39,592 nucleotides of DNA from Escherichia phage vB_EcoP_LNA7. Below the pieces are notes generated by a model, which searched no databases, was not told the origin of the DNA, and was given only the letters and a program-made list of their open reading frames with translations. Positions 3,960 to 37,671 of the stretch are shown piece by piece. Each line of letters opens with the position of its first letter. The stretch's first letter is position 1. The stretch lies in sequence record OM630586.1; one strand, 5' to 3'. The position numbers and the translations under genes are program-made.

Positions 3960-4883
3960 ATGGCTGAATCTAATGCAGACGTATATGCATCTTTTGGCGT
4001 GAACTCCGCTGTGATGTCTGGTGGTTCCGTTGAGGAACATGAGCAGAACATGCTGGCTCTTGATGTTGCTGCCCGTGATGGCGATGATGCAATCGAGTTA
4101 GCGTCCGACGAAGTGGAAACAGAACGTGACCTGTACGACAACTCTGACCCATTCGGTCAAGAGGATGACGAAGGTCGCATTCAGGTTCGTATTGGTGATG
4201 GCTCTGAGCCTACCGATGTGGATACTGGCGAAGAAGGCTTTGAGGGCACCGAAGGCTCCGAAGAGTTTACCCCACTGGGTGAGACTCCAGAAGAACTGGT
4301 AGCTGCCTCTGAGCAACTTGGTGAGCACGAAGAGGGCTTCCAAGAGATGATTAACATTGCTGCCGAGCGTGGCATGAGCGTCGAGACCATTGAGGCTATC
4401 CAGCGTGAGTACGAGGAGAACGAGGAGTTGTCCGCTGAATCCTACGCTAAGCTGGCTGAAATTGGCTACACTAAGGCTTTCATTGACTCGTATATCCGTG
4501 GTCAAGAAGCTCTGGTGGAGCAGTACGTAAACAGTGTCATTGAGTACGCTGGTGGTCGTGAGCGTTTTGACGCACTCTATAATCACCTTGAGACGCACAA
4601 CCCTGAGGCTGCACAGTCGCTGGACAATGCGTTGACCAATCGTGACTTAGCGACCGTTAAGGCTATCATCAACTTGGCTGGTGAGTCTCGCGCTAAGGCG
4701 TTCGGTCGTAAGCCCACTCGTAGTGTGACTAATCGTGCTATTCCTGCTAAACCTCAGGCTACCAAGCGTGAAGGCTTTGCGGACCGTAGCGAGATGATTA
4801 AAGCTATGAGCGACCCTCGGTATCGCACAGATGCCAACTATCGTCGTCAAGTCGAACAGAAAGTAATCGATTCGAACTTCTGA
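3960..4883 (+). CDS. 9: gene 9 capsid scaffolding protein (acidic)
   Basis: ORF track 307 aa, same length as T7 gp9; SD aaggagac. Confidence 0.95.
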   Translation: MAESNADVYASFGVNSAVMSGGSVEEHEQNMLALDVAARDGDDAIELASDEVETERDLYDNSDPFGQEDDEGRIQVRIGDGSEPTDVDTGEEGFEGTEGSEEFTPLGETPEELVAASEQLGEHEEGFQEMINIAAERGMSVETIEAIQREYEENEELSAESYAKLAEIGYTKAFIDSYIRGQEALVEQYVNSVIEYAGGRERFDALYNHLETHNPEAAQSLDNALTNRDLATVKAIINLAGESRAKAFGRKPTRSVTNRAIPAKPQATKREGFADRSEMIKAMSDPRYRTDANYRRQVEQKVIDSNF

Positions 4884-4896
4884 TAGACTCTGAAAT

Positions 4897-4919
4897 TAAT
4901 ACGACTCACTATAGGGAGA
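4897..4919 (+). promoter_or_regulatory. Phage RNAP class III promoter phi10, followed by the gggagaccacaacggtttccc leader hairpin and strong SD aagaaggaga
   Basis: taatacgactcactatagggaga then the leader familiar from pET vectors. Confidence 0.95.
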
Positions 4920-4981
4920 CCACAACGGTTTCCCTCTAGAAATCATTCTTTGTTTAACTTTCTTAAGAAGGAGACATACAT

Positions 4982-6019
4982 ATGGCTAACATGACTGGTG
5001 GACAGCAAATGGGTACTAACCAAGGTAAAGGCGTAAGTACTGGTTCTGCCGATAAACTGGCGTTGTTCTTGAAGGTATTTGGCGGTGAAGTCCTGACTGC
5101 GTTCGCTCGTACCTCCGTGACCACTTCTCGCCACATGGTCCGCTCCATCTCCAGCGGCAAATCTGCTCAGTTCCCTGTTCTGGGTCGCACTCAGGCAGCA
5201 TATCTGGCTCCGGGTGAGAACCTCGACGATAAACGTAAGGACATCAAACACACCGAGAAGGTAATCACCATTGATGGTCTCCTGACGTCTGACGTTCTGA
5301 TTTACGATATTGAGGACGCGATGAACCACTACGACGTTCGCTCTGAGTATACCTCTCAGTTGGGTGAATCTCTGGCGATGGCTGCGGATGGTGCGGTTCT
5401 GGCAGAGATTGCTGGTCTGTGTAACTTGGAAAGCCAATATGATGAGAACATTGCAGGTCTGGGCACTGCCACTGTGATTGAGACCACTCAGAACAAGGCT
5501 GCCCTTACCGACCAAGTTGCTCTGGGTAAAGAGATCATTGCGGCTCTGACCAAAGCTCGTGCGGCTCTGACCAAGAACTATGTTCCTGCTGCTGACCGCG
5601 TGTTCTACTGTGACCCAGATAGCTACTCTGCGATTCTGGCAGCACTGATGCCTAACGCGGCAAACTACGCTGCTCTGATTGACCCTGAGAAGGGTTCTAT
5701 CCGTAACGTTATGGGCTTTGAGGTTGTAGAAGTTCCTCACCTCACCGCTGGTGGTGCTGGCACCTCTCGTTCTGATGCTACCGGTCAGAAGCACGCCTTC
5801 CCTGCCACTAAGAGTGGTAATGACAAGGTTGCTAAAGACAACGTTATCGGCCTGTTCATGCACCGCTCTGCGGTAGGTACTGTTAAACTGCGTGACTTGG
5901 CTCTGGAGCGCGCTCGCCGTGCTAACTTCCAAGCGGACCAGATTATCGCTAAGTACGCAATGGGCCATGGTGGTCTGCGCCCAGAAGCTGCTGGTGCAGT
6001 GGTTTTCATGGCGGGGTAA
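4982..6019 (+). CDS. 10A: gene 10A major capsid protein
   Basis: ORF track 345 aa, MANMTGGQQMG...; T7 gp10A is 345 aa. Confidence 0.95.
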   Translation: MANMTGGQQMGTNQGKGVSTGSADKLALFLKVFGGEVLTAFARTSVTTSRHMVRSISSGKSAQFPVLGRTQAAYLAPGENLDDKRKDIKHTEKVITIDGLLTSDVLIYDIEDAMNHYDVRSEYTSQLGESLAMAADGAVLAEIAGLCNLESQYDENIAGLGTATVIETTQNKAALTDQVALGKEIIAALTKARAALTKNYVPAADRVFYCDPDSYSAILAALMPNAANYAALIDPEKGSIRNVMGFEVVEVPHLTAGGAGTSRSDATGQKHAFPATKSGNDKVAKDNVIGLFMHRSAVGTVKLRDLALERARRANFQADQIIAKYAMGHGGLRPEAAGAVVFMAG

Positions 6020-6856: not shown

Positions 6857-9241
6857 ATGGCACTCATTAGCCAATCAATCAAGAACTTGAAGGGTGGTAT
6901 CAGTCAACAGCCTGACATCCTTCGTTATCCCGACCAAGGGTCACGCCAAGTTAACGGTTGGTCTTCGGAGACCGAGGGCCTCCAAAAGCGTCCACCTATG
7001 GTCTTCTTAAAGACACTTGGAGACAACGGTGCTTTAGGTCAATCTCCGTACATCCACCTGATTAACCGTGATGAGAACGAACAGTATTACGCTGTGTTCA
7101 CCGGAACAGGAATCCGTGTGTTTGACCTTGCTGGTAACGAGAAGCAAGTTAGGTATCCTAACGGTTCCAACTACATCCAGACCGCTCAGCCACGTAACGA
7201 CCTGCGAATGGTTACTGTAGCAGACTATACGTTCATCGTTAACCGTAACGTTGTTGTACAGAAGGACCCACTTTATATCAACTTACCGAATTATAACCCT
7301 AAGCAGGACGCTCTGATAAACGTTCGCGGTGGTCAGTATGGTCGTACCTTACAGATTATGATTAACGGTGGTTTACAAGCCTCCTATCAGATTCCTGATG
7401 GTTCACAGCCAGCACACGTTAATAACACTGACGCTCAGTGGTTAGCAGAAGAGTTGGCTCGCCAGTGTAGAGCAAATACTCCGGGATGGACCTTCAATGT
7501 TGGGCAGGGTTTTATCCACATCATAGCACCTGCGGGTCAACAGATTGATTCCCTGATGACGAAGGATGGCTACGCAGACCAGTTGATTAACCCTGTGACC
7601 CACTACGCTCAGTCGTTCTCTAAGTTGCCACCTAATGCTCCTAATGGCTACATGGTGAAAATCGTAGGGGACGCCTCTAAGTCTGCCGACCAGTATTACG
7701 TTCGGTATGACGCTGAGCGGAAAGTTTGGGCTGAGACTTTAGGTTGGAACACTGAGTACCAAGTTCTATGGAACACCATGCCACACGCTCTTGTGCGAGC
7801 CTCTGATGGTAATTTCGACTTCAAGTGGCTTGAGTGGTCTCCTAAGTCTTGTGGAGACGTTGATACTAACCCTTGGCCTTCTTTTGTTGGTTCAAGTATC
7901 AACGATGTGTTCTTCTTCCGTAACCGCTTAGGATTCCTTAGTGGGGAGAACATCATACTGAGTCGTACAGCCAAATACTTCAACTTCTACCCTGCGTCCA
8001 TTGCGAACCTTAGTGATGACGACCCTATAGATGTAGCTGTGAGTACCAACCGAATAGCAATCCTTAAGTACGCCGTTCCGTTCTCAGAAGAGTTACTCAT
8101 CTGGTCCGACGAGGCACAATTCGTACTTACAGCGTCCGGTACACTTACGTCAAAGTCAGTTGAGTTGAACCTAACGACTCAGTTTGATGTGCAGGACCAA
8201 GCGAGACCTTATGGGATTGGGCGTAACGTCTACTTTGCCAGTCCGAGGTCCAGCTACACGTCCATCCACAGATACTACGCCGTGCAGGATGTAAGTTCCG
8301 TTAAGAACGCTGAGGATATCACAGCCCACGTTCCTAACTACATCCCAAATGGTGTGTTTAGTATTTGTGGTAGTGGTACTGAAAACTTCTGTTCGGTATT
8401 ATCTAACGGGGACCCAAGTAAAATCTTCATATACAAATTCCTGTACCTGAACGAAGAGTTAAGACAACAGTCGTGGTCACATTGGGACTTTGGGGAAAAC
8501 GTACAGGTTCTAGCGTGTCAGAGTATCAGCTCAGATATGTATGTTATTCTTCGCAATGAGTTCAATACGTTCCTAGCTAGAATCTCTTTCACTAAGAACG
8601 CCATTGACTTACGAGGAGAACCTTACCGTGCCTTTATGGACATGAAGGTTCGCTACACGATTCCTAGTGGAACATACAACGATGATACATTCACTACCTC
8701 TATCCATATTCCAACCATTTATGGTGCAAACTTCGGGAGGGACAAAATCACTGTATTGGAGCCTGATGGTAAGATAACCGTATGTGAGCAACCAACTGGT
8801 GGGTGGAATAGTGACCCTTGGCTGAGACTAAACGGTAACTTAGAGGGACGTGAAGTGTTCATTGGGTTCAACATACACTTCGTCTATGAGTTCTCTAAGT
8901 TCCTCATTAAGCAAACTGCCGACGATGGGTCTACCTCCACGGAAGACATTGGGCGCTTACAGTTACGCCGAGCGTGGGTTAACTACGAGGATTCTGGTAC
9001 GTTCGACATTTACGTTGAGAACCAATCGTCCAACTGGAAGTACACAATGGCTGGTGCCCGATTAGGCTCTAACACTCTGAGGGCAGGTCGGCTGAACTTA
9101 GGGACCGGACAATACCGATTCCCTGTGGTGGGTAACGCTAAGTTCAATACCGTATACATCGTGTCCGATGCGACTACTCCGCTGAACATCATTGGGTGTG
9201 GCTGGGAAGGTAACTACTTACGGAGAAGTTCAGGTATTTAA
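6857..9241 (+). CDS. 12: gene 12 tail tubular protein B (nozzle)
   Basis: ORF track 794 aa, same as T7 gp12. Confidence 0.95.
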   Translation: MALISQSIKNLKGGISQQPDILRYPDQGSRQVNGWSSETEGLQKRPPMVFLKTLGDNGALGQSPYIHLINRDENEQYYAVFTGTGIRVFDLAGNEKQVRYPNGSNYIQTAQPRNDLRMVTVADYTFIVNRNVVVQKDPLYINLPNYNPKQDALINVRGGQYGRTLQIMINGGLQASYQIPDGSQPAHVNNTDAQWLAEELARQCRANTPGWTFNVGQGFIHIIAPAGQQIDSLMTKDGYADQLINPVTHYAQSFSKLPPNAPNGYMVKIVGDASKSADQYYVRYDAERKVWAETLGWNTEYQVLWNTMPHALVRASDGNFDFKWLEWSPKSCGDVDTNPWPSFVGSSINDVFFFRNRLGFLSGENIILSRTAKYFNFYPASIANLSDDDPIDVAVSTNRIAILKYAVPFSEELLIWSDEAQFVLTASGTLTSKSVELNLTTQFDVQDQARPYGIGRNVYFASPRSSYTSIHRYYAVQDVSSVKNAEDITAHVPNYIPNGVFSICGSGTENFCSVLSNGDPSKIFIYKFLYLNEELRQQSWSHWDFGENVQVLACQSISSDMYVILRNEFNTFLARISFTKNAIDLRGEPYRAFMDMKVRYTIPSGTYNDDTFTTSIHIPTIYGANFGRDKITVLEPDGKITVCEQPTGGWNSDPWLRLNGNLEGREVFIGFNIHFVYEFSKFLIKQTADDGSTSTEDIGRLQLRRAWVNYEDSGTFDIYVENQSSNWKYTMAGARLGSNTLRAGRLNLGTGQYRFPVVGNAKFNTVYIVSDATTPLNIIGCGWEGNYLRRSSGI

Positions 9242-12609: not shown

Positions 12610-15600
12610 ATGGATAAGTACGATAAGAACGTACCAAGTGATTATGATGGTCTGTTCCAGAAGGCGGCTGATGCCACAGGGGTCTCTTATGACCTTTTAC
12701 GTAAAGTCGCTTGGACAGAATCACGATTTGTACCTACAGCTAAATCTAAGACTGGACCATTAGGTATGATGCAATTCACCAAGGCAACCGCTAAGGCCCT
12801 TGGTCTGCGAGTTACCGATGGTCCAGATGACGACCGACTGAACCCTGAGTTAGCCATCAATGCTGCCGCTAAGCACCTTGCAGGTCTGGTAGGTAAATTC
12901 GATGGTGATGAACTCAAAGCTGCCCTTGCGTACAACCAAGGCGAGGGACGCTTGGGTAATCCACAACTTGAGGCGTACTCTAAGGGAGACTTCGCATCCA
13001 TCTCTGAGGAGGGACGTAACTACATGCGTAACCTTCTGGATGTTGCTAAGTCGCCTATGGCTGGACAGTTGGAAACTTTTGGAGGTATCACCCCAAAGGG
13101 TAAAGGTATTCCGGCTGAGGTTGGACTAGCTGGTATTGGTCATAAGCAGAAGGTAACACAGGAACTTCCTGAGTCCACAAGTTTTGACGTTAAGGGTATC
13201 GAACAGGAGGCTCCGGCGAAACCATTCGCCAAGGACTTTTGGGAGACCCACGGAGAAACACTTGATGAGTACAACAATCGTTCAACCTTCTTCGGATTCA
13301 AAAATGCTGCCGAAGCTGAACTCTCCAACTCAGTCGCTGGGATGGCTTTCCGTGCTGGTCGTCTCGATAATGGTTTTGATGTGTTTAAAGACACCATTAC
13401 GCCGACTCGCTGGAACTCTCACATCTGGACTCCAGAGGAGTTAGAGAAGATTCGAACCGAGGTTAAGAACCCTGCGTATATCAATGTGGTAACTGGTGGT
13501 TCCCCTGAGAATCTTGACGACCTCATTAAGCTGGCTAACGAGAACTTTGAGAATGACTCCCGCGCTGCCGAAGCTGGCCTAGGTGCTAAACTGAGTGCTG
13601 GTATTATTGGCGCTGGTGTGGACCCTCTTAGCTATGTCCCCATGGTCGGTGTCACTGGTAAGGGCTTTAAGTTAATCAATAAGGCTCTTGTAGTTGGTGC
13701 CGAAAGTGCTGCACTGAACGTTGCATCCGAAGGTCTCCGTACCTCCGTAGCTGGTGGTGACGCAGATTATGCTGGTGCTGCTTTAGGTGGCTTTGTGTTT
13801 GGCGCTGGTATGTCTGCAATCAGCGATGCTGTAGCTGCTGGTCTGAAACGTAGCAAACCAGAAGCTGAGTTTGATAATGAGTTCATTGGTCCTATGATGC
13901 GGATGGAAGCCCGTGAGACAGCGCGGAACGCCAACTCTGCGGACCTCTCTCGGATGAACACTGAGAACATGAAGTTTGAAGGTGAACATAATGGTGTCCC
14001 TTATGAGGAATTACCAACCGAGAGAGGTGCCGTGGTGTTACACGATGGCTCCGTTCTAAGTGCAAGCAACCCAATCAACCCTAAGACTCTAAAAGAGTTC
14101 TCAGAGGTTGACCCTGAGAAGGCTGCGCGAGGAATCAAACTTGCTGGGTTCACCGAGATTGGCTTGAAGACCTTGGGGTCTGACGATGCTGACATTCGTA
14201 GAGTGGCTATTGACCTCGTTCGCTCTCCTACTGGTATGCAGTCTGGTGCCTCGGGTAAGTTCGGTGCAACAGCCTCTGACATCCATGAGAGGCTTCATGG
14301 TACTGACCAGCGTACTTACAATGACTTGTACAAAGCAATGTCTGACGCTATGAAAGACCCTGAGTTCTCTACTGGTGGAGCTAAGATGTCCCGTGAAGAA
14401 ACTCGCTACACTATCTACCGTAGAGCGGCACTAGCTATTGAGCGTCCAGAACTACAGAAGGCGCTCACTCCGTCTGAGAGAATCGTTATGGACATCATTA
14501 AGCGTCACTTTGACACCAAGCGTGAACTCATGGAGAATCCCGCAATCTTCGGTAATACGAAGGCTGTGAGTATCTTCCCTGAGAGTCGTCATAAGGGAAC
14601 CTACGTTCCTCACGTATACGACCGTCACGCCAAGGCGCTGATGATTCAACGCTACGGTGCTGAAGGCTTACAGGAAGGTATTGCTCGTTCGTGGATGAAC
14701 AGCTACGTCTCCAGACCTGAGGTCAAGGCCAGAGTCGATGAGATGCTTAAGGAAGTCCACGGGGTGAAGGAAGTAACACCTGAGATGGTAGAGAAGTACG
14801 CTATGGATAAGGCTTACGGTATCTCCCATTCAGACCAGTTCACCAACAGTTCCATAATCGAAGAGAACATTGAGGGCTTAGTAGGTATCGAGAACAACTC
14901 ATTCCTTGAGGCACGTAACTTGTTTGATTCGGACCTATCCATCACTATGCCAGACGGACAGCAATTCTCAGTGAACGACCTAAGGGACTTCGACATGTTC
15001 CGCATCATGCCAGCGTATGACCGCCGTATCAATGGTGACATCGCCATCATGGGGTCTACTGGTAAAACCACTAAGGAACTTAAGGAAGAGATTCTGGCTC
15101 TCAAAGCGAAAGCTGAGGGAGACGGTAAGAAGACTGGCGAGGTACATGCTCTTATGGATACCGTTAAGATTCTTACTGGTCGTGCTCGACGCAATCAGGA
15201 CACTGTGTGGGAAACCTCACTGCGTTCCATCAATGACCTAGGGTTCTTCGCTAAGAACGCCTATATGGGTGCTCAGAACATTACGGAGATTGCTGGGATG
15301 ATTGTAACTGGTAACGTGCGTGCTCTCAGTCACGGTATCCCAATTCTGCGTGATACCCTCTACAAGTCTAAACCAGTTTCCGCTAAGGAACTCAAGGAAC
15401 TCCATGCGTCTCTGTTCGGGAAGGAGGTTGACCAGTTGATTCGCCCTAAACGTGCTGACATTGTGCAGCGCCTAAGGGAAGCGACTGATACAGGACCTGC
15501 TGTGGCGAACATCGTAGGGACCTTGAAGTATTCAACACAGGAACTGGCTGCTCGCTCTCCGTGGACTAAGCTACTGAACGGAACCACTAACTACCTTCTG

Positions 15601-16566
15601 GATGCTGCGCGTCAAGGTATGCTTGGGGATGTTATTAGTGCCACCCTAACAGGTAAGACTACCCGCTGGGAGAAAGAAGGATTCCTTCGCGGTGCCTCCG
15701 TAACTCCTGAGCAGATGGCTGGCATCAAGTCTCTCATCAAGGAACATATGGTACGCGGTGAGGACGGTAAGTTTACCGTTAAGGACAAACAAGCGTTCTC
15801 TATGGACCCACGGGCTATGGACTTATGGCGACTGGCTGACAAGGTAGCTGATGAGGCAATGCTGCGGCCACATAAGGTGTCCTTACAGGATTCCCATGCG
15901 TTCGGAGCATTAGGTAAGATGGTTATGCAGTTTAAGTCTTTCACTATCAAGTCCCTTAACTCTAAGTTCCTGCGGACATTCTACGACGGATACAAGAACA
16001 ACCGAGCGATTGACGCTGCGCTGAGCATTATCACCTCTATGGGTCTCGCTGGTGGTTTCTATGCTATGGCTGCACACGTCAAAGCATACGCTCTGCCTAA
16101 GGAGAAACGTAAGGAGTACTTGGAGCGTGCATTAGACCCAACCATGATTGCCCACGCTGCGTTGTCTCGTAGTTCTCAATTGGGTGCTCCTTTGGCTATG
16201 GTTGACCTAGTTGGTGGTGCCTTAGGGTTCGAGTCCTCCAAGATGGCTCGCTCTACGATTCTACCTAAGGATACCACGAAGGAACGTGACCCAAACAAAC
16301 CGTACACCTCTAGAGAGGTAATGGGCGCTATGGGTTCAAACCTTCTGGAGCAGATGCCTTCGGCTGGCTTTGTGGCTAACGTTGGTGCTACCTTAATGAA
16401 TGCTGCTGGTGTGGTTAACTCACCTAACAAAGCAACCGAGCAGGACTTCATGACTGGCTTGATGAACTCTACCAAAGAGTTAGTTCCTAACGACCCTCTT
16501 ACTCAACAGCTTGTGGTTAAGATTTATGAGGCCAATGGTGTTAACTTGAGGGAGCGTCGGAAATAA
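12610..16566 (+). CDS. 16: gene 16 internal core protein with N-terminal lytic transglycosylase domain
   Basis: ORF track 1318 aa, same as T7 gp16; transglycosylase-like N-terminus (ESRF...GMMQF). Confidence 0.95.
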   Translation: MDKYDKNVPSDYDGLFQKAADATGVSYDLLRKVAWTESRFVPTAKSKTGPLGMMQFTKATAKALGLRVTDGPDDDRLNPELAINAAAKHLAGLVGKFDGDELKAALAYNQGEGRLGNPQLEAYSKGDFASISEEGRNYMRNLLDVAKSPMAGQLETFGGITPKGKGIPAEVGLAGIGHKQKVTQELPESTSFDVKGIEQEAPAKPFAKDFWETHGETLDEYNNRSTFFGFKNAAEAELSNSVAGMAFRAGRLDNGFDVFKDTITPTRWNSHIWTPEELEKIRTEVKNPAYINVVTGGSPENLDDLIKLANENFENDSRAAEAGLGAKLSAGIIGAGVDPLSYVPMVGVTGKGFKLINKALVVGAESAALNVASEGLRTSVAGGDADYAGAALGGFVFGAGMSAISDAVAAGLKRSKPEAEFDNEFIGPMMRMEARETARNANSADLSRMNTENMKFEGEHNGVPYEELPTERGAVVLHDGSVLSASNPINPKTLKEFSEVDPEKAARGIKLAGFTEIGLKTLGSDDADIRRVAIDLVRSPTGMQSGASGKFGATASDIHERLHGTDQRTYNDLYKAMSDAMKDPEFSTGGAKMSREETRYTIYRRAALAIERPELQKALTPSERIVMDIIKRHFDTKRELMENPAIFGNTKAVSIFPESRHKGTYVPHVYDRHAKALMIQRYGAEGLQEGIARSWMNSYVSRPEVKARVDEMLKEVHGVKEVTPEMVEKYAMDKAYGISHSDQFTNSSIIEENIEGLVGIENNSFLEARNLFDSDLSITMPDGQQFSVNDLRDFDMFRIMPAYDRRINGDIAIMGSTGKTTKELKEEILALKAKAEGDGKKTGEVHALMDTVKILTGRARRNQDTVWETSLRSINDLGFFAKNAYMGAQNITEIAGMIVTGNVRALSHGIPILRDTLYKSKPVSAKELKELHASLFGKEVDQLIRPKRADIVQRLREATDTGPAVANIVGTLKYSTQELAARSPWTKLLNGTTNYLLDAARQGMLGDVISATLTGKTTRWEKEGFLRGASVTPEQMAGIKSLIKEHMVRGEDGKFTVKDKQAFSMDPRAMDLWRLADKVADEAMLRPHKVSLQDSHAFGALGKMVMQFKSFTIKSLNSKFLRTFYDGYKNNRAIDAALSIITSMGLAGGFYAMAAHVKAYALPKEKRKEYLERALDPTMIAHAALSRSSQLGAPLAMVDLVGGALGFESSKMARSTILPKDTTKERDPNKPYTSREVMGAMGSNLLEQMPSAGFVANVGATLMNAAGVVNSPNKATEQDFMTGLMNSTKELVPNDPLTQQLVVKIYEANGVNLRERRK

Positions 16567-16586
16567 TACGACTCACTATAGGGAGA
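16564..16586 (+). promoter_or_regulatory. Phage RNAP class III promoter phi17 (overlaps the gene 16 stop)
   Basis: taatacgactcactatagggaga. Confidence 0.95.
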
Positions 16587-16638: not shown

Positions 16639-18438
16639 ATGGCTAACGTAATTAAAACCGTTTTGACTTACCAGTTGGATGGCTCCAATCGTGATTTTAA
16701 TATCCCGTTTGAGTATCTAGCCCGTAAGTTTGTAGTAGTAACCCTTATTGGCGTAGACCGAAAGGTCCTTACGATTAATACAGACTACCGTTTTGCTACT
16801 CGTACTACCATCTCACTGACTAAGGCTTGGGGTCCGTCAGATGGCTACATTACCATCGAGTTACGTCGAGTAACCTCCACGACCGACAGATTGGTTGACT
16901 TTACGGACGGCTCAATCCTCCGTGCGTATGACCTTAACGTTGCTCAGATTCAAACGATGCATGTAGCGGAGGAGGCGCGTGACCTGACTGCTGATACCAT
17001 CGGTGTCAATAATGATGGTCACTTGGATGCCCGTGGTCGTCGAATTGTGAACCTAGCGAACGCCGTGGATGACCGTGACGCTGTTCCGTTTGGTCAACTA
17101 AAGACCATGAACCAGAACTCGTGGCAGGCTCGTAATGAGGCCCTACAGTTCCGCAATGAGGCTGAGACTTTCAGGAATCAAGCGGAGGGCTTTAAGAATG
17201 AGTCCGGTACTAATGCTGCTAATACGAAGCAGTGGCGAGATGAGGCTAATGGGTTCCGAGATGAAGCCGAGCAATTCAAGAATACGGCTGGTCAATATGC
17301 TACATCTGCTGGGAACTCTGCTACTGCTGCGCATCAATCTGAGGTAAACGCTGAGAACTCTGCCACAGCATCCGCTAACTCTGCCGAATTGGCAGAACAG
17401 CAAGCAGACCGGGCTAAGAGCGAGGCGGATAAGCTGGCGAATAATAATGCGTTCGCGGGGACGCTATACTCCATAACCCCAGATAGTCCTGCTGTAATAG
17501 GCTCAGGTACTGTTACATTCAAGTCGTCCTATGCGGTGAATGCTCCAATACTTAGGGCGACAAAAGGTGGCATGTCTCTGGGGAGCGATAGAGTTGATGG
17601 AGATGGTACCTCCACGTTCATCAACTTCTACAAAAACGCTGTAAACGCTGTAGGTAGTATTCAAGTAGGAGATGACGGCACATTCACCATAAATTCCAAC
17701 GGCTGGACGAAACTCGCTGGTAGCGTCACACAGGTGAACCAGCTGCGTTCTGGATACTCAGAGGTTACAGTAAACAACAACAATGTAGCCGTCCACGCCA
17801 GAGCAACAAATCTCAGTGGGGGTGAGGGTCAGACAAACGCAGTATATAACAGATACACGATTGTAGGCCGAGGGTCTAGCGTCTCAGGGGCAGAGGGAGC
17901 GCTAATGGATTTTGGCATACGAGAGGTAGTAGGTAACAGGTATGAGGCATATATGTGGGTAGCAGGCTTTGGTGGATCAGCCGTGTGGACATTTGGTAAT
18001 AATGGCACGTTCAACAGCCCAGCCGATATAGTAGCCAACGGGTCGTTAGTCGCTAATCACAGTCTACGTATTGGGACATGTACCCACGCTGCCGATGGCA
18101 ACATTTTTGGCTCTATCTGGGGTAACGATTGGTTAACCAATTACCTAAACAGGTCGTTTAAGAGGAAAACCAAAGGATGGACTTCGGTGTGGAATGGGAG
18201 AATAGGTGCCGGAGGTGTAGCATGGCTGACCCAAGATGTACGTTTTAGAACCATTTGGATACGCACAGCGGCCCAGCCTAATACGTGGACGCCAATTCAA
18301 CTTGGCCCGGATGGGACGTATATGGCGCGACCTGACCCTGGCTGGATTAGGTTCACACTTGCTAACAATGGTACATCCATAACCAACAACCAAGATGATA
18401 ACTCTGTTCCTATCGAGATTGTCGTAGAGAATGAGTAA
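16639..18438 (+). CDS. 17: gene 17 tail fibre; T7-like N-terminus, non-T7 C-terminal receptor-binding region
   Basis: ORF track 599 aa; first ~260 aa match T7 gp17 (MANVIKTVLTYQLDGSNRDF...), remainder differs and the protein is 46 aa longer than T7 (553 aa). Confidence 0.9.
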   Translation: MANVIKTVLTYQLDGSNRDFNIPFEYLARKFVVVTLIGVDRKVLTINTDYRFATRTTISLTKAWGPSDGYITIELRRVTSTTDRLVDFTDGSILRAYDLNVAQIQTMHVAEEARDLTADTIGVNNDGHLDARGRRIVNLANAVDDRDAVPFGQLKTMNQNSWQARNEALQFRNEAETFRNQAEGFKNESGTNAANTKQWRDEANGFRDEAEQFKNTAGQYATSAGNSATAAHQSEVNAENSATASANSAELAEQQADRAKSEADKLANNNAFAGTLYSITPDSPAVIGSGTVTFKSSYAVNAPILRATKGGMSLGSDRVDGDGTSTFINFYKNAVNAVGSIQVGDDGTFTINSNGWTKLAGSVTQVNQLRSGYSEVTVNNNNVAVHARATNLSGGEGQTNAVYNRYTIVGRGSSVSGAEGALMDFGIREVVGNRYEAYMWVAGFGGSAVWTFGNNGTFNSPADIVANGSLVANHSLRIGTCTHAADGNIFGSIWGNDWLTNYLNRSFKRKTKGWTSVWNGRIGAGGVAWLTQDVRFRTIWIRTAAQPNTWTPIQLGPDGTYMARPDPGWIRFTLANNGTSITNNQDDNSVPIEIVVENE

Positions 18439-18466
18439 TCATTAACGTAAACCTTAGGAGGACATT

Positions 18467-18670
18467 ATGTTAAGCCTAGACTTCAACAACGAAGTCATAA
18501 AGGCTGCTCCAATTGCAGGGGCGGTAGGTGCTGAGGTAGCATCCCGCCTCTTCTGGGGCCTCTCATTGAACGAGTGGTTCTATGTAGCAGCTATCGCCTA
18601 CACAGTGGTTCAGATTGGTGCCAAGGTAGTCGACAAGATAATTGACTGGAAGAAAGCCAATAAGGAGTGA
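18467..18670 (+). CDS. 17.5: gene 17.5 class II holin
   Basis: ORF track 67 aa, hydrophobic, same size as T7 gp17.5. Confidence 0.9.
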   Translation: MLSLDFNNEVIKAAPIAGAVGAEVASRLFWGLSLNEWFYVAAIAYTVVQIGAKVVDKIIDWKKANKE

Positions 18671-21290: not shown

Positions 21291-21731
21291 ATGATAAGTA
21301 AGAAGAAGTATGTAGTTGATAAGGAGACTGGCTGCTGGAACTTTAAGGGATGTAAGACGAAGACTGGCTATGGTCGTCTCCGTGTAAATGGAGTCCATTG
21401 GATGGCCCACAGGTATTCCCTGAGTTGTCATCTAGGTAGACCGATAGCTGATGGAATGGTTGTGATGCACCTATGTGATAACCCATCATGTGTTAACCCT
21501 GAGCATCTTAAGGAAGGGACTCAGAAGGAGAACATAGAGGATTGTATATCAAAAGGAAGAGCAACAAAGGCTACTGGTAAACGTATGTCGAGAAGGGACC
21601 CTAGCGAGGAACGTAAGGCTATGGTCATTCGTCGCTACCATAAAGGATGGACAGCAACGTCCATAGCAAGATACCATAAGCTCTCTGTAGCGTGGGTAAA
21701 GAGGGTCATCGAGGCTTACCTAAGTGATTGA
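21291..21731 (+). CDS. Free-standing HNH homing endonuclease between genes 19 and 19.5 (no T7 counterpart at this position as far as I recall)
   Basis: ORF track 146 aa; HLCDNPSCVNPEHL HNH motif, paralogous to gp7.7; C-terminal HTH-like SIARYHKLSVAWVKRVI; SD aaggaggt. Confidence 0.85.
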   Translation: MISKKKYVVDKETGCWNFKGCKTKTGYGRLRVNGVHWMAHRYSLSCHLGRPIADGMVVMHLCDNPSCVNPEHLKEGTQKENIEDCISKGRATKATGKRMSRRDPSEERKAMVIRRYHKGWTATSIARYHKLSVAWVKRVIEAYLSD

Positions 21732-29750: not shown

Positions 29751-30011
29751 ATGTTTCGACTTCATTACAACAAAAGCCTTGAGAATTTCACGGTTCGCCG
29801 TGCTGACCGTTCAATCATATGTGCTAGCGAGCGCCGAGCTAAGTTACCTCTTATTGGTGACACAGTTCCTCTGGCACCGAGCGTCCACATCATTATCACC
29901 CGTGGTGACTTTGAGAAAGCAATAGACAAGAAACGTCCGGTTCTTAGTGTGGCAGTGACCCGCTTCCCGTTCGTCCGTCTGTTACTCAAACGAATCAAGG
30001 AGGTGTTCTGA
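29751..30011 (+). CDS. 1.6: gene 1.6 protein
   Basis: ORF track 86 aa, MFRLHYNKS... Confidence 0.85.
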
Positions 30012-30476
30012 TGTCCCATTATGATTTTTATGATGCCACGATTATCAAACTTATTGATATGAACGAAGGTAATTCAGACGATTTGTCTAACTGTTCCTTC
30101 CAGTGCGCTGGGATTCCTTGTAGCATCTGCCCAGCTAGGAATGATGATGATATGACACTAGGTGAAATCCGAGCGATGGACCCGCGTAAACCTCATCTGA
30201 ATAAACCAGAGGTAACTCCCACAGATGACCAGCCTTCCGCTGAGTCAATCGAAGGTGTCACTAAGCCTTCCCACTATATGCTGTTCGACGACATTGAGGC
30301 TATCGAAGTGATTGCCCGTTCAATGACTCGTGAGCAGTTCAAAGGGTACTGCTACGGGAACATCCTTAAGTATCGCCTACGTGCTGGTAAGAAGTCCGAA
30401 CTGGCTTACTTAGAGAAAGACATGGCGAAAGCTGGATTCTACGGTGAACTGTACGAGAAACATAAGGATAAGTGCT

Positions 30477-30487
<11 letters not shown>
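30011..30487 (+). CDS. 1.7: gene 1.7 nucleotide (dTMP/dGMP) kinase-like protein, N-terminally shorter than T7
   Basis: ORF track 158 aa; C-terminal 130 aa match recalled T7 gp1.7 (196 aa). Confidence 0.8.
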
Positions 30488-30792
<305 letters not shown>

Positions 30793-30795
<3 letters not shown>

Positions 30796-30815
30796 TACGA
30801 CTCACTATTAGGGAA
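30793..30815 (+). promoter_or_regulatory. Phage RNAP class II promoter phi2.5
   Basis: taatacgactcactattagggaa. Confidence 0.9.
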
Positions 30816-30860
30816 GACTACCTGTGAGAAACTAAACGAAACCTAAAGGAGATTAACATT

Positions 30861-31559
30861 ATGGCTAAGAAGATTTTCACCTCTGCGCTGGGTACCGCTG
30901 AACCTTACGCTTACATCGCCAAGCCGGACTACGGTAACGAAGAGCGTGGCTTTGGGAACCCTCGTGGTGTATACAAAGTTGACCTGACTATTCCCAACAA
31001 AGACCCGCGCTGCCAGCGTATGGTCGATGAAATCGTGAAGTGTCACGAAGAGGCTTATGCTGCTGCCGTTGAGGAATACGAAGCGAATCCACCTGCTGTA
31101 GCTCGTGGTAAGAAACCGCTGAAACCGTATGAAGGCGACATGCCGTTCTTCGATAATGGTGACGGCACGACTACCTTTAAGTTTAAATCTTACGCATCAT
31201 ATCAGGATAAGAAGACCAAAGAGACCAAGCACATCAATCTGGTTGTGGTTGACTCCAAAGGTAAGAAGATGGAAGACGTTCCGATTATCGGTGGTGGCTC
31301 TAAGCTGAAAGTCAAGTACTCTCTGGTTCCGTACAAGTGGAACACCGCTGTCGGTGCGAGCGTTAAGTTGCAACTGGAATCCGTAATGCTGGTCGAACTG
31401 GCTACCTTTGGTGGTGGTGAAGATGATTGGGCTGACGAAGTTGAAGAGAACGGCTATGTTGCCTCTGGTTCTGCCAAAGCTAGCAAACCACGCGACGAAG
31501 AAAGCTGGGACGAAGACGACGAAGGCTCTTACGAAGAAGACTCAGACGGAGATTTCTAA
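30861..31559 (+). CDS. 2.5: gene 2.5 single-stranded DNA-binding protein
   Basis: ORF track 232 aa, acidic C-terminal tail ending ...DGDF. Confidence 0.95.
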   Translation: MAKKIFTSALGTAEPYAYIAKPDYGNEERGFGNPRGVYKVDLTIPNKDPRCQRMVDEIVKCHEEAYAAAVEEYEANPPAVARGKKPLKPYEGDMPFFDNGDGTTTFKFKSYASYQDKKTKETKHINLVVVDSKGKKMEDVPIIGGGSKLKVKYSLVPYKWNTAVGASVKLQLESVMLVELATFGGGEDDWADEVEENGYVASGSAKASKPRDEESWDEDDEGSYEEDSDGDF

Positions 31560-32015
31560 GTGGCTGGCGCATACGCTGCGCGTGGTATCCGAAAGGTCGG
31601 GACATTCCGTTCCGGCCTAGAAGATAAGGTCTCTAAGCAGCTAGAGAGTAAAGGTATACAGTTTGACTACGAGCAGTGGAAGATTCCCTACGTAGTCCCT
31701 GCGAGTAATCACACGTATTGCCCAGATTTTCTACTGCCCAATGGTATCTTCATCGAGACCAAGGGGCTATGGGAAAGTGACGACCGCAAGAAGCATCTCC
31801 TGATTCGCGAGCAGATGCCAGAGCTAGATATACGACTTGTGTTCTCAAGCTCCCGCACAAAACTCTACAAAGGGTCTCCAACGTCCTATGCAGAATTTTG
31901 TGAAAAACACGGTATCCTGTTTGCTGACAAATTAATTCCTGTAGAATGGCTCAAAGAACCCAAAAAGGAGGTGCCATTTGACAAGCTGAAACAATCGAAA
32001 GGAGGAAAGAAATAA
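31560..32015 (+). CDS. 3: gene 3 endonuclease I (Holliday junction resolvase), GTG start immediately after the gene 2.5 stop
   Basis: ORF track 151 codons, (M)AGAYAARGIRKVGTFRSGLEDKVSKQLESKGI..., matches T7 gp3; ggag 10 nt upstream of GTG. Confidence 0.85.
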   Translation: MAGAYAARGIRKVGTFRSGLEDKVSKQLESKGIQFDYEQWKIPYVVPASNHTYCPDFLLPNGIFIETKGLWESDDRKKHLLIREQMPELDIRLVFSSSRTKLYKGSPTSYAEFCEKHGILFADKLIPVEWLKEPKKEVPFDKLKQSKGGKK

Positions 32016-32470
32016 TGGCACGAGTACAATTTAAACAACGTGAATCTACTGATGCAATCTTTGTCCACTGCTCGGCTACAAAGCCAAGTCAGAATGTAGG
32101 GGTTCGCGAGATTCGCCAGTGGCATAAAGAGCAAGGTTGGCTTGATGTCGGGTATCACTTTATCATCAAGCGCGATGGTACTGTAGAGGAAGGCCGAGAT
32201 GAGATGGCTGTAGGCTCTCACGCTAAAGGCTATAATCATAACTCTATTGGTGTATGCCTTGTGGGTGGTATTGACGATAAAGGTAAGTTCAAGGCTAACT
32301 TTACGCCAGCCCAAATGCAATCCCTCCGCTCACTGCTTGTCACACTGCTGGCTAAGTACGAAGGCGCTGTGCTTCGCGCACATCACGATGTGGCTCCTAA
32401 GGCTTGCCCATCGTTCGACCTTAAGCGTTGGTGGGAGAAGAACGAACTGGTCACTTCTGACCGTGGATAA
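32015..32470 (+). CDS. 3.5: gene 3.5 lysozyme (N-acetylmuramoyl-L-alanine amidase) and inhibitor of phage RNAP
   Basis: ORF track 151 aa, MARVQFKQRESTDAIFVHCSATKPSQNVGVREIRQWHKEQGWLDVGYHFII... Confidence 0.95.
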   Translation: MARVQFKQRESTDAIFVHCSATKPSQNVGVREIRQWHKEQGWLDVGYHFIIKRDGTVEEGRDEMAVGSHAKGYNHNSIGVCLVGGIDDKGKFKANFTPAQMQSLRSLLVTLLAKYEGAVLRAHHDVAPKACPSFDLKRWWEKNELVTSDRG

Positions 32471-32471
32471 T

Positions 32472-32494
32472 TAATTGAACTCACTAAAGGGAGA
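32472..32494 (+). promoter_or_regulatory. Phage RNAP class II promoter phi3.8, followed by the gggagaccacaacggtttccc hairpin
   Basis: taattgaactcactaaagggaga. Confidence 0.85.
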
Positions 32495-32526
32495 CCACAA
32501 CGGTTTCCCTTTGTTCGCATTGTTGA

Positions 32527-34245
<1,719 letters not shown>

Positions 34246-34263
34246 AAGAATACTTGATGATTT

Positions 34264-34286
34264 TAATTAGACTCACTAAAGGAGCT
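34264..34286 (+). promoter_or_regulatory. Phage RNAP class II promoter phi4.3 (here directly upstream of an HNH gene)
   Basis: taattagactcactaaaggagct. Confidence 0.8.
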
Positions 34287-34292
34287 AACCAC

Positions 34293-34718
34293 ATGGACAC
34301 TAACTTAGCGAGATTTGAAAGATTCTTGAAGATTGATGGTGACTGCTGGCTGTTCACTGGTGGAAGGGCACACTCCTATGGAGTCTTCTGGATGAACGGT
34401 AAGAATCACAGGGCACATAGGGCCGCCTTCGAACTTTATAACGGGAGGAAACCTAATGGTGTTATATTACACTCTTGTGATAATCCTTTGTGCTGCAATC
34501 CCTCTCATCTATCTGAGGGAACTCAGCTTGATAATATGGTGGACATGGTTAGAAAGGGACGCTCACTGAGAGGCACGAAGAATCCAATGTGCAAGTTTAC
34601 TGATGTGGATGTTAAGTTCATCCGAGAGTCTACTATGAAGGTTAAGGATTTAGCTGCTTTATTCGGAGTAACACGCCAAACAATAACCAAATGGAGGAGA
34701 CACACATGTTCAAACTGA
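34293..34718 (+). CDS. Free-standing HNH homing endonuclease between promoter phi4.3 and gene 4.3
   Basis: ORF 34254..34718 trimmed to ATG 34293 (MDTNLARFERFLKIDGDCWLF...); LHSCDNPLCCNPSHL HNH motif; C-terminal HTH-like LAALFGVTRQTITKWRRH; 141 aa. Confidence 0.85.
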   Translation: MDTNLARFERFLKIDGDCWLFTGGRAHSYGVFWMNGKNHRAHRAAFELYNGRKPNGVILHSCDNPLCCNPSHLSEGTQLDNMVDMVRKGRSLRGTKNPMCKFTDVDVKFIRESTMKVKDLAALFGVTRQTITKWRRHTCSN

Positions 34719-34918
34719 TTAAGAAATTGGGCCAACTGCTGGTTCGTATGTACAACATTGAAGCTAAACGCCTGAACGATGAGGCTCGTAAAGAGGCCAC
34801 ACAGTCACGCGCTCTGGCGATTCGCTCAAACGAACTGGCTGACAGCGCATCCAACAAGGTTACAGAAGCTGCCCGTGTAGCAAACCAAGCTCAACAGCTT
34901 TCCAAATTCTTTGAGTAA
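34706..34918 (+). CDS. 4.3: gene 4.3 protein
   Basis: ORF 34691..34918 trimmed to ATG 34706 (MFKLIKKLGQLLVRMYN...), 70 aa as in T7; overlaps the HNH ORF end by 13 nt. Confidence 0.85.
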   Translation: MFKLIKKLGQLLVRMYNIEAKRLNDEARKEATQSRALAIRSNELADSASNKVTEAARVANQAQQLSKFFE

Positions 34919-34937
34919 TCAAACAGGAGAAACCATT

Positions 34938-35207
34938 ATGTCTAACGTAGCTGAAACTATCCGTCTATCCGATACCGCTGACCAGTGGAACCGTCGAGTC
35001 CACATCAACGTTCGCAACGGGAAGGCGACTATGGTTTACCGCTGGAAGGACTCTAAGTCCTCTAAGAATCACACTCAGCGTATGACGTTGACAGATGAGC
35101 AAGCACTGCGTCTGGTCAATGCGCTTACCAAAGCTGCCGTGACAGCAATTCATGAAGCTGGTCGCATCAATGAAGCTATGGCTATCCTCGACAAGATTGA
35201 TAGCTAA
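34938..35207 (+). CDS. 4.5: gene 4.5 protein
   Basis: ORF 34911..35207 trimmed to ATG 34938 (MSNVAETIRLSDTADQWNRR...), 89 aa as in T7. Confidence 0.85.
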   Translation: MSNVAETIRLSDTADQWNRRVHINVRNGKATMVYRWKDSKSSKNHTQRMTLTDEQALRLVNALTKAAVTAIHEAGRINEAMAILDKIDS

Positions 35208-35210
35208 GAG

Positions 35211-35251
35211 TGGTATACTCAAGGTCGCCCGAGTGGTGGCCTTCATGAATA
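35211..35251 (+). promoter_or_regulatory. RNase III processing hairpin R4.7
   Basis: gtggtatactcaaggtcgcccgagtggtggccttcatga. Confidence 0.6.
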
Positions 35252-35274
35252 CTATTCGACTCACTATAGGAGGT
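35252..35274 (+). promoter_or_regulatory. Phage RNAP class II promoter phi4.7
   Basis: ctattcgactcactataggaggt. Confidence 0.85.
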
Positions 35275-35280
35275 ATTATT

Positions 35281-35694
35281 ATGCGTGACCCTAAAGTTAT
35301 CCAAGCAGAAATCGCTAAGCTGGAAGGTGAACTAGCAGATGTACTGGCCCATGAGTCCATGACGCGTTCGGCTGTCCACATCTTGAAGAACTTAGGGTGG
35401 ACTTGGACTCGTAAAGGTGGCTGGAAGAAACCTGAACCCAAGATGGACTTTAAGACGTTCGATAAGGACTCAATGACCCACATAAAGGCTGGTGATTGGG
35501 TTAAGATTGACACTGGAACAACTGGAGGATATGGCTACGTGAGGAACGTAAGTGGTAACATCGCGCGAGTCTCGTTTGTAGAACGCGTGACTTTCGCTGG
35601 TGCTGTGGTCCAAGAGTCGTCCAGAATGTACACTACTAACTACCTGAAAGTTGTATCGCATACCGAAATCGTTCGTGCTCTGACAGGTAAGTAA
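35281..35694 (+). CDS. 4.7: gene 4.7 protein (C-terminal half divergent from T7)
   Basis: ORF 35152..35694 trimmed to ATG 35281 (MRDPKVIQAEIAKLEGEL...), 137 aa. Confidence 0.85.
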   Translation: MRDPKVIQAEIAKLEGELADVLAHESMTRSAVHILKNLGWTWTRKGGWKKPEPKMDFKTFDKDSMTHIKAGDWVKIDTGTTGGYGYVRNVSGNIARVSFVERVTFAGAVVQESSRMYTTNYLKVVSHTEIVRALTGK

Positions 35695-35712
35695 TCAATA
35701 GGAGAAATCAAT

Positions 35713-37671
35713 ATGATCGTTTCTGACATCGAAGCTAACGCCCTCTTAGAGAGCGTCACTAAGTTCCACTGCGGGGTTATCTACGACTACTCCACCGCTG
35801 AGTACGTAAGCTACCGTCCGAGTGACTTCGGTGCGTATCTGGATGCGCTGGAAGCCGAGGTTGCACGAGGCGGTCTTATTGTGTTCCACAACGGTCACAA
35901 GTATGACGTTCCTGCATTGACCAAACTGGCAAAGTTACAATTGAACCGAGAGTTCCACCTTCCTCGTGAGAACTGTATTGACACCCTTGTACTGTCACGA
36001 TTGATTCACTCTAACCTGAAAGACACCGATATGGGTCTTCTGCGTTCCGGTAAGCTGCCTGGGAAACGCTTTGGGTCTCACGCTTTGGAGGCGTGGGGTT
36101 ATCGCTTAGGCGAGATGAAGGGTGAATACAAGGATGACTTTAAGCGTATGCTTGAAGAGCAAGGTGAAGAGTACGTTGACGGAATGGAGTGGTGGAACTT
36201 CAACGAAGAGATGATGGCCTATAACGTTCAGGACGTTGTGGTGACTAAGGCTCTACTTGAGAAGTTAATCTCTGACAAACACTACTTCCCCGACCAAGGT
36301 ATCGACTGGACTGACGTAGGTAACACATTCTGGCGTGAGTCTGTAGAGGCTGTCGAGCTAGAGCATAAAGCTGCGTGGCTGCTCGCTAAGCAGGAACGTA
36401 ACGGCTTTCCATTCAATACCAAAGCTATCGAAGACCTGTACGTAGAGTTGGCTGCTCGTCGCTCTGAGTTGCTCATGAAGTTGACCGAAACGTTTGGCTC
36501 GTGGTATCAACCTAAAGGTGGCACCGAAATGTTCTGCCATCCGAGGACTGGTAAACCACTGCCTAAATACCCTCGCATTAAGACACCTAAAGTTGGTGGC
36601 ATCTTTAAGAAGCCTAAGAACAAGGCACAGCGAGAAGGACGTGAGCCTTGCGAACTGGATACCCGAGAGTACGTTGCTGGTGCTCCTTACACCCCAGTTG
36701 AGCACGTGGTGTTTAACCCATCGTCTCGTGACCACATTCAGAAGAAACTCCAAGAGGCTGGATGGGTCCCTACCAAGTACACCGATAAGGGTGCTCCTGT
36801 GGTGGACGATGAGGTACTCGAAGGAGTACGTGTAGATGACCCTGAGAAGCAAGCTGCTATCGACCTCATTAAAGAGTACCTGATGATTCAGAAGCGAATC
36901 GGACAGTCTGCTGAGGGAGACAAGGCGTGGCTGCGTTACGTTCAAGAGGACGGTAAGATTCATGGTTCTGTTAACCCTAATGGAGCAGTTACAGGTCGTG
37001 CGACCCATGCGTTCCCCAACCTTGCGCAAATTCCGGGTGTACGTTCTCCTTATGGAGAGCAGTGTCGCGCTGCTTTTGGCGCTGAGCACCATTTGGATGG
37101 GATAACCGGTAAGCCTTGGGTTCAGGCTGGTATCGACGCATCCGGCCTTGAGTTGCGCTGCTTGGCCCACTTCATGGCTCGCTTTGATAACGGTGAGTAT
37201 GCTCACGAGATTCTTAATGGCGACATCCACACTAAGAACCAGATGGCTGCCGAACTGCCTACCCGTGATAACGCTAAGACGTTCATCTATGGGTTCCTTT
37301 ATGGTGCTGGTGATGAGAAGATTGGACAGATTGTTGGTGCTGGTAAAGAGCGCGGTAAGGAACTCAAGAAGAAATTCCTTGAGAACACCCCAGCGATTGC
37401 AGCACTCCGTGAGTCTATCCAACAGACCCTTGTCGAGTCCTCTCAGTGGGTAGCTGGTGAGCAGCAAGTAAAGTGGAAACGCCGCTGGATTAAAGGTCTG
37501 GATGGTCGTAAGGTACACGTTCGTAGTCCTCACGCTGCTTTGAATACCCTACTGCAATCTGCTGGTGCTCTCATCTGCAAACTGTGGATTATCAAGACCG
37601 AAGAGATGCTCGTAGAGAAAGGCTTGAAGCATGGCTGGGATGGGGACTTTGCGTACATGGCGTGGGTGCAT
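35713..37671 (+). CDS. 5: gene 5 DNA polymerase, exon 1 (653 codons)
   Basis: ORF track 35713..37722; homology to T7 gp5 stops after ...DFAYMAWVH at 37671, and the remaining 17 codons of the ORF are intron sequence. Confidence 0.9.

Follow-up and report, generated by a model that had tools for sequence, protein, structure and literature searches.

Gene 17 and its genomic setting

The tail fibre gene (gene 17) of Escherichia phage vB_EcoP_LNA7 was analysed in the window, by which we mean the whole 39,592-nucleotide (nt) stretch of record OM630586.1, a complete, circularly permuted Teseptimavirus genome. The first 20 kb of the window are 93.7% identical to T7 across 95%, and the remainder is ~91-93% identical to T7-like coliphages and Salmonella phages. 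Compared base by base over the whole genome, the window is ~92.6% identical to T7 and ~93.0% identical to the BASEL phage JacobBurckhardt (Bas65), so that the three genomes are roughly equidistant. Gene 17 stands in the canonical order 16-17-17.5-18 and encodes a fibre protein (gp17) of 599 amino acids (aa), against 553 in T7, both lengths as given in an earlier note on this DNA. The T7-type promoter upstream, a perfect match of a kind not expected by chance, occupies the phi17 site of T7 and ends 52 nt before the open reading frame (ORF). Only 28 nt separate the gp17 stop codon (18438) from the start of the holin gene 17.5 (18467). The features of the locus are collected in Table 1.

Table 1. 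Features of the gene 17 locus (positions in the window; LPS, lipopolysaccharide)
Feature	Residues	Position	Strand	Basis or remark
T7-type class III promoter (phi17 equivalent), drives gene 17		16564..16586	+	23/23 consensus match
Gene 17, tail fibre protein	1-599	16639..18438	+	single intact ORF; phrog_4242 tail fibre, E 9e-175
N-terminal tail-attachment domain	1-150	16639..17088	+	PF03906
Alanine-rich coiled-coil shaft, proximal half-fibre	151-268	17089..17442	+	91% identity to T7
Hinge motif QADRAKSEADKLANNNAFAGT, putative 5' recombination junction	255-275	17401..17463	+	conservation in 14 fibres
Middle segment A	269-345	17443..17673	+	90% to Bas65, 63% to P0006, 61% to PGX1/P0001/P0002; no T7 similarity
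Middle segment B	346-468	17674..18042	+	89% to Bas65, 41-44% to PGX1/P0009; none to P0006 or T7
T7-type connector and beta-sandwich tip, predicted LPS-binding end	469-599	18043..18435	+	PDB 4A0T, E 5e-30
Connector motif DGNIFGSIWGNDWLTNYL, putative second conserved junction (middle/tip)	486-503	18094..18147	+	all fibre types aligned
Tip loop equivalent to the T7 N501 loop	543-549	18265..18285	+	2 aa longer than the T7 loop
Tip loop equivalent to the T7 HI loop	584-590	18388..18408	+	NQDDNSV, T7 IADSRSV; gap-free alignment
3' extension of the divergent block: spacer and first ~95 nt of holin gene 17.5		18439..18560	+	identity profile

Architecture of the fibre

From the N-terminus to the C-terminus, identity of gp17 to T7 is 98% (residues 1-150), 91% (151-268), 21% (269-468) and 45% (469-599), which divides the protein into a T7-like proximal half, a middle without counterpart in T7 and a T7-type tip. 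The proximal half is as the earlier note had described it, including the FRNEAE, FKNESG and FKNTAG repeats, all of which are present in the translation. Its tail-attachment domain (PF03906, residues 1-162, E 1.6e-74) is equally close to T7 and T3 and matches the solved T7 N-terminal structures 8e4g/8dsp (E 1e-102), and with phmmer the T7 gp17 chain 7boz is matched across residues 1-279 (E 1e-163). The assignment of the following residues to a coiled-coil shaft comes from work on T7 (PMC13485008).

At the DNA level, the ~95% identity to T7/T3 gives way to 50-60% over the stretch 17400-17460. A six-way DNA alignment narrows the change from T7-like to Bas65/PGX1-like bases to ~17412-17415, that is, codons 258-260, in good agreement with the junction near codon 262 proposed in the earlier note, whose interval 17420-18438 covers codons 261-599 and the stop. 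The switch falls within the motif QADRAxxEADKLxNxNxFAGT, which is kept in 14 different aligned fibres (R258, A259, E262, A263, D264, K265, L266, N268, N270, A273 and G274, with D264 replaced by Asn in one of the 14 as the sole exception). In T7, a hinge at residues ~266-272 divides the proximal from the distal half-fibre (PMC13485008), and the junction motif of gp17 coincides with this position. The block beyond it (17450-18476 by blastn) is the largest T7-unmatched block of the whole genome. Identity to T7 recovers not at the gp17 stop codon but at ~18560, inside the holin gene: the patch 18439-18560 is only 62-76% identical to T7/T3, with 90-96% thereafter, and it diverges from Bas65 as well (66-80%).

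The middle (residues 269-468) has no detectable relationship to residues 269-424 of T7 gp17 by BLASTP (E 1.3), and alignment of small family profiles with hhalign gave a probability of 2.6%. Searched against PDB, a profile of the middle did not match the full-length T7 chains and returned only a chance match (E 0.92); Pfam and PHROGs gave no match for it. It is ~44-48 aa longer than the T7 middle, with 48 residues opposite gaps and four the other way. AlphaFold2 monomer models reached a mean predicted local distance difference test score of 42 for residues 255-599 (10 sequences) and 34.5 for residues 262-480 (seven sequences); the models come from shallow alignments of an obligate trimer and were not used for fold searches. 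They suggest, with low confidence, an all-beta composition of the middle.

The tip is where the description in the earlier note has to be changed. It had characterized the whole region after codon 262 as unrelated to T7, with only short C-terminal motifs in common; this holds for the middle, whereas residues 469-599 align without large gaps to T7 residues 425-553 at 45-46% identity (E 4e-29 to T7 gp17 and, by phmmer, 5e-30 to the crystal structure 4A0T). By sequence, gp17 carries the connector helix and eight-stranded beta-sandwich tip of the T7/T3 type, and no homologue of the T7 pyramid/middle (T7 residues ~269-447). The connector follows the consensus DGNIxGxxWGxxWLxxYL, of which D486, G487 and N488 are invariant in all aligned fibre types, and overlaps a PF20744 (gp37_trimer) match at residues 464-507 (26.8 bits, cut-off 21.7). 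PGX1-type fibres carry this motif and then diverge, and we read it as a second junction, between middle and tip.

Roles of tip residues were assigned by mapping the deep mutational scanning residues of Huss et al. (PMC8043750) onto the T7 alignment. In the hydrophobic core, 8 of 11 residues are identical and the other three conservative; four of the five salt-bridge residues and all four substitution-intolerant glycines are conserved. The receptor-facing positions G479, D520, D540, S543 and V544 of T7 are retained, and others are changed, namely R542, the 'hook' residue (N588 in both the window and Bas65), N501 (P547), G521 (P567) and S541 (D587).

Relatives, reassortment and chaperone genes

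In a set of 50,697 phage records, this fibre has a single full-length relative, that of Bas65 (MZ501078, QXV80675.1). It is likewise 599 aa long, aligns over 100% of its length without insertions or deletions (94.9% nt and 93% aa identity), and shares the three-part architecture, residues N588 and P547, and a gene neighbourhood with no chaperone gene. The two proteins differ at 39 residues, 30 of them in the distal half, and the phage backbones are only ~93% identical. A search with the middle alone recovered just Bas65 (90%), PGX1 (44%) and, over 62 aa, two Klebsiella phages.

The census on which we rely is an exhaustive search with HMMER through 1.84 billion cluster representatives, which returned only 29 proteins matching residues 262-599; most of these match the tip only, and four (P0006, P0009, P0011 and P0033) cover the middle. 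IMG/VR contained no close relatives of the distal half. Word-index searches with a distal-half profile gave mostly a side family, and with the middle profile they returned nothing, although the collection holds known members, so that this result is not read as absence. The earlier note had expected a search with the C-terminal residues to find the donor lineage, and none can be named: beyond Bas65, the best relative of the distal half in the scan is 48% identical. Phage vB_EcoP_S37A, described as a 'novel Teseptimavirus', was considered as the same phage and rejected, its fibre being of the tailspike type.

The relatives combine the segments of gp17 in different ways. T7 (gp17, NP_042005.1, PDB 4A0T) and T3 have a proximal half that is 91-98% identical, the same hinge, the same phi17 promoter and gene order, and a homologous connector and tip (45-46% identity to T7, 40-42% to T3); of the distal half they share only the tip, in which one window loop is 2 aa longer than that of T7. 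PGX1 (WGL32444.1) and the metagenomic P0001 and P0002 have a T7-identical N-terminal half and share with the window the hinge-proximal sequence, middle segment A, middle segment B (~41%) and the connector motif, whereas their tip is short and unrelated. P0006 (614 aa, Logan run SRR2063898) is the best distal-half match besides Bas65, with a tip (60% identity) that includes the NNQDDNS loop; its middle segment B is of a different type with a YFPIIKQ motif, not common to the window. Its N-terminal domain (residues 1-150) is 85% identical to that of the window and its shaft only 40%, and because of this low shaft identity P0006 appears to come from another Studiervirinae lineage.

Tip type correlates with the presence of a chaperone gene. 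None follows the fibres of the window, Bas65, T7, T3 or P0006, where the holin gene is directly next, whereas in PGX1 and the P0002 contig a Caudo_TAP (PF02413) gene for a 175-aa protein lies between fibre and holin. With its short interval to the holin gene and its T7-type tip, the window fibre falls outside the Tfa/Caudo_TAP PGX1 type, with which only the middle is common, at 41-61% identity to that of these chaperone-dependent fibres. Teseptimavirus fibres are known to vary widely at the C-terminus, with intramolecular chaperones and Mu-like Tfa proteins (second BASEL paper, PMC11990801). As observations on these neighbours, the Caudo_TAP gene of PGX1 is annotated 'tail fiber protein', and at the same fibre-holin position of Klebsiella phage 31 there is an ORF of 128 aa that lacks both an annotation and a Pfam match; the ORFs of this interval (Caudo_TAP genes and the phage 31 ORF) lie at 4677-5204 in locus L005, 3373-3900 in L007 and 3368-3754 in L006.

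Evolutionary signal between the two alleles

The window and Bas65 carry the two known alleles of this fibre, which were compared by the Nei-Gojobori method for synonymous divergence (dS) and the ratio of nonsynonymous to synonymous divergence (dN/dS). For residues 1-268, dS was 0.19 and dN/dS 0.09 (0.17 in the shaft), and for residues 269-599 dS was 3-fold lower (0.062) and dN/dS 0.75; in middle segment B the values were 0.035 and 1.47. The difference in dS between the halves is significant (p = 4e-4), as is that in the split of synonymous and non-synonymous changes (Fisher p = 2e-5). The block of low dS extends over ~17275-18300. Replacements are concentrated in clusters at codons 333-337, 394-396, 416-422, 473-474 and 544-548; the last cluster lies in the tip loop equivalent to the T7 N501 loop, which holds three of the ten tip differences between the two alleles (A544E, Q546R and N548S).

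We infer from this pattern that the distal halves of the window and Bas65 share a more recent ancestor than their backbones, which points to continued recombination, and that purifying constraint on the distal half is slight, as one would expect of a surface turned towards the host.

Origin of the mosaic

T7-like phages change host specificity chiefly by exchanging distal modules of the tail fibre, a process on which fibre-swap engineering is also based. A recombinational origin of gene 17 is well supported because the breakpoints are sharp with flanks of ~95% identity, the middle is non-homologous to that of T7, and the modules are combined differently in other fibres; to this extent the mosaic and the horizontal exchange proposed in the earlier note are borne out. 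As a whole, the explanation that we consider likely is that gp17 is a recombinant, three-part mosaic fibre. The gene 17 product forms, as a homotrimer, the lateral tail fibre of this T7-like coliphage, with a T7/T3 allele of residues 1-268 through which it would dock on a T7-like tail. At the hinge motif (residues ~258-270) it switches to a different distal half-fibre, made of a putatively all-beta middle of 200 residues, unlike that of T7 in sequence and distantly common to the PGX1-type fibres, and, after the connector, a predicted T7-fold beta-sandwich tip (residues ~505-599) with the T7 core kept and the receptor-facing loops altered. The arrangement probably arose via homologous recombination at conserved junction motifs among Studiervirinae phages, and the whole distal half would later have been exchanged and diversified between the window and Bas65 lineages. 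Like that of T7, the fibre probably folds without a chaperone.

The same sequences could in principle have come about without horizontal exchange, the distal half being a T7 orthologue that diverged in place under strong diversifying selection. The global alignment is indeed collinear with T7, the tip is clearly homologous, and the distal half is weakly constrained (dN/dS ~0.75-1.5 relative to Bas65). Divergence in place is nevertheless very improbable in our judgement: identity drops from ~95% to ~55% within ~60 nt between flanks of ~95%, the middle lacks homology to T7 even by profile methods and leaves a length difference of 46 residues, and PGX1, P0001 and P0002, with their T7-identical N-terminal halves, have the same type of middle with another tip, which indicates that the modules reassort.

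An origin in the laboratory or in the database, as an assembly chimera or an artefact of a contaminated bacterial assembly, also deserves mention because the identical 599-aa protein is present in NCBI under a bacterial name, which indicates foreign DNA in the source assemblies. That entry, WP_252549026.1 (MCO4329754.1, MCO4332101.1 and MCO4337444.1), is named 'phage tail fiber protein [Staphylococcus hyicus]' and lies on contigs of ~39.6-39.7 kb (e.g. GCA_023924765.1, JALGNY010000019.1). The label is almost certainly wrong and the phage DNA a contaminant of those assemblies, because a T7-like coliphage with an LPS-type fibre is implausible on a Gram-positive host. For the mosaic itself to be an artefact is hardly credible, as the identical protein occurs on five independent 39-40 kb contigs (NCBI assemblies and a Logan run), Bas65, which was isolated independently, shows this architecture too, at 95% nt identity, and the ORF is intact in the canonical gene order.

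Receptor use and host range

Plating data are available for Bas65 and T7 from the BASEL raw data. Both plate fully on K-12, neither forms plaques when O16 is restored, and delta-wecB has no effect on either. On delta-rfaC, the efficiency of plating (EOP) of Bas65 is 2-7.5e-6, and T7 is mostly below detection (1e-06 placeholder), with 200 plaque-forming units (EOP 4e-6) once; on delta-rfaG, EOP is 5e-4 to 1e-3 for Bas65 and 4e-5 to 4e-4 for T7. Neither phage lyses UTI89, CFT073, 55989 or Salmonella. On E. coli B REL606, Bas65 plates at ~1e-5 with lysis zones and T7 at ~1. The receptor class of Bas65 is thus that of T7, the rough LPS core, and its host range differs from that of T7 at least on E. 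coli B. The window fibre probably binds the rough LPS core as well, by analogy with Bas65. The prediction of the earlier note that host range or LPS specificity differs from T7 stands in these Bas65 data for the ~1e5-fold difference on E. coli B, and does not stand in so far as the receptor class is the same.

A distal half that switches the receptor class altogether, to O-antigen, capsule or an outer-membrane protein, would have precedents, as the Teseptimavirus fibres of Bas102-104, with other C-termini, target the O16 antigen (PMC11990801), and the middle domain could hold a second binding site. We consider such a switch improbable, given that Bas65, with the same fibre type, needs rfaC and rfaG, is blocked by O16 and is indifferent to wecB, that Pfam and PHROGs show no enzymatic or lectin domain, and that the tip keeps the T7 fold and several T7 receptor-facing residues. 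Another reading, which we regard as speculative and rather unlikely, is that the middle is not just a spacer but a second host-surface-binding domain, which would make the fibre bivalent, with a side-on glycan contact in addition to that of the tip, and the middle a new class of exchangeable receptor-binding module in T7-like phages. This suggestion is prompted by the lack of any PDB, Pfam or PHROGs homologue of the middle, by its reassortment separately from the tip, and by a dN/dS of ~1-1.5 with clustered replacements between the two known alleles.

With respect to the tip, positions R542 and N501 of T7 accept basic residues only when the host is BL21 or 10G, and the R542Q change costs ~100-fold on BL21 (PMC8043750). 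From this analogy, Asn in place of the hook Arg542 together with the remodelled N501 loop is predicted to bias the fibre towards K-12-type and away from E. coli B-type cores. The plating gap on E. coli B is not assignable to the fibre, given the ~7% divergence of the genomes outside it.

Several points weigh against a mosaic fibre with altered host recognition. The BASEL authors see prophage-encoded immunity of B strains, not adsorption, as the likely reason for the poor plaquing of Bas65, which still makes lysis zones on E. coli B. The functional data all come from Bas65, whose fibre differs at 39 residues. The middle could be structurally homologous to that of T7 despite the lack of a sequence signal. 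No donor of high identity was found that would fix the direction or age of the exchange. Positive selection is not claimed either, as the distal dN/dS is not significantly above 1; what the values show is a constraint much relaxed compared with the N-terminal half.

These points bear most directly on the possibility that the distal half is recombinant but functionally equivalent to that of T7, host-range differences being due to other loci such as host immunity. We take this possibility seriously, while holding it to be the less probable one. Besides the cryptic-prophage immunity favoured by the BASEL authors, it is consistent with the like behaviour of Bas65 and T7 on K-12 LPS mutants and O16-restored cells, with the lysis of REL606 by Bas65, with the conserved D540, D520, G479, S543 and V544 of the T7 tip, and with the ~7% divergence outside the fibre. 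It fits less well with N588 and P547, which here occupy positions where T7 needs basic residues on B-type hosts, and with the plating of Bas65 on the rfaG mutant (~1e-3, T7 ~1e-4) and its consistently detectable plating on the rfaC mutant, which hint at some difference in how the core is used.

That fibres are modular is textbook knowledge and is exploited in engineering. Gene 17 of the window is a second allele of the already isolated Bas65 fibre type, and the general message is not new. What the locus adds is a map of two natural junctions, the hinge and the DGNIxGxxWG connector, at which the T7 scaffold takes foreign modules, an indication that a tip of the T7 fold is compatible with a non-T7 middle even where no chaperone is encoded, and a residue-level hypothesis (Asn in place of Arg542) for the poor plating of Bas65-type phages on E. 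coli B.

Other features of the window

Within the fibre region, ORFs of 53-86 aa occur on the opposite strand and out of frame, all of them wholly within gene 17, and were dismissed as genes because they are nested in a strongly supported coding gene. Matches resembling sigma-70 promoters and terminators were at chance level, and no Rfam family was matched in the fibre region. Next to gene 17, the 5' third of the holin gene 17.5 (18490-18560, codons ~9-32) is 62-74% identical to T7/T3 and 66-80% to Bas65; the holin differs at residues 17-30, and the remaining gene is 90-96% identical. The closest matches to this 5' patch, in Klebsiella T7-like phages, reach ~81% and are overall no better than T7, so that they do not identify a donor.

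The backbone is mosaic too: positions 7001-8000, 30001-33000 and 36001-37000 are nearer to Bas65 (93-95%) than to T7 (85-90%), and elsewhere, e.g. at 14001-16000, the window is nearer to T7 than to Bas65. A block of ~600 nt in the DNA polymerase gene 5 (37662-38263, + strand) is absent from T7 and Bas65, and the polymerase ORF ends early at 37722. The block holds an ORF for a 131-aa HNH endonuclease (37758-38153). With 44.8 bits (E 5e-10), slightly below the gathering score of 50, it matches the Rfam group I intron model RF00028 from end to end. The block probably represents a mobile group I intron that encodes a homing endonuclease; such introns have been described in some T7-like phages. Two further blocks without T7 or Bas65 counterpart (21291-21731 and 34254-34718, both + strand) each contain an HNH-type homing-endonuclease-like ORF (146 and 154 aa), with HLCDNPSCVNPEHL among the motifs; one block follows the large terminase gene and the other the primase/helicase gene.

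The internal virion protein gp16, with its lytic transglycosylase domain, has 1318 aa in both the window and T7. It is annotated ~170-180 aa longer in Bas65 (loci L001/L009, record 33091-37551) and in the P0002 contig (locus L005, 1500 aa), and the extra part lies upstream of the aligned region.

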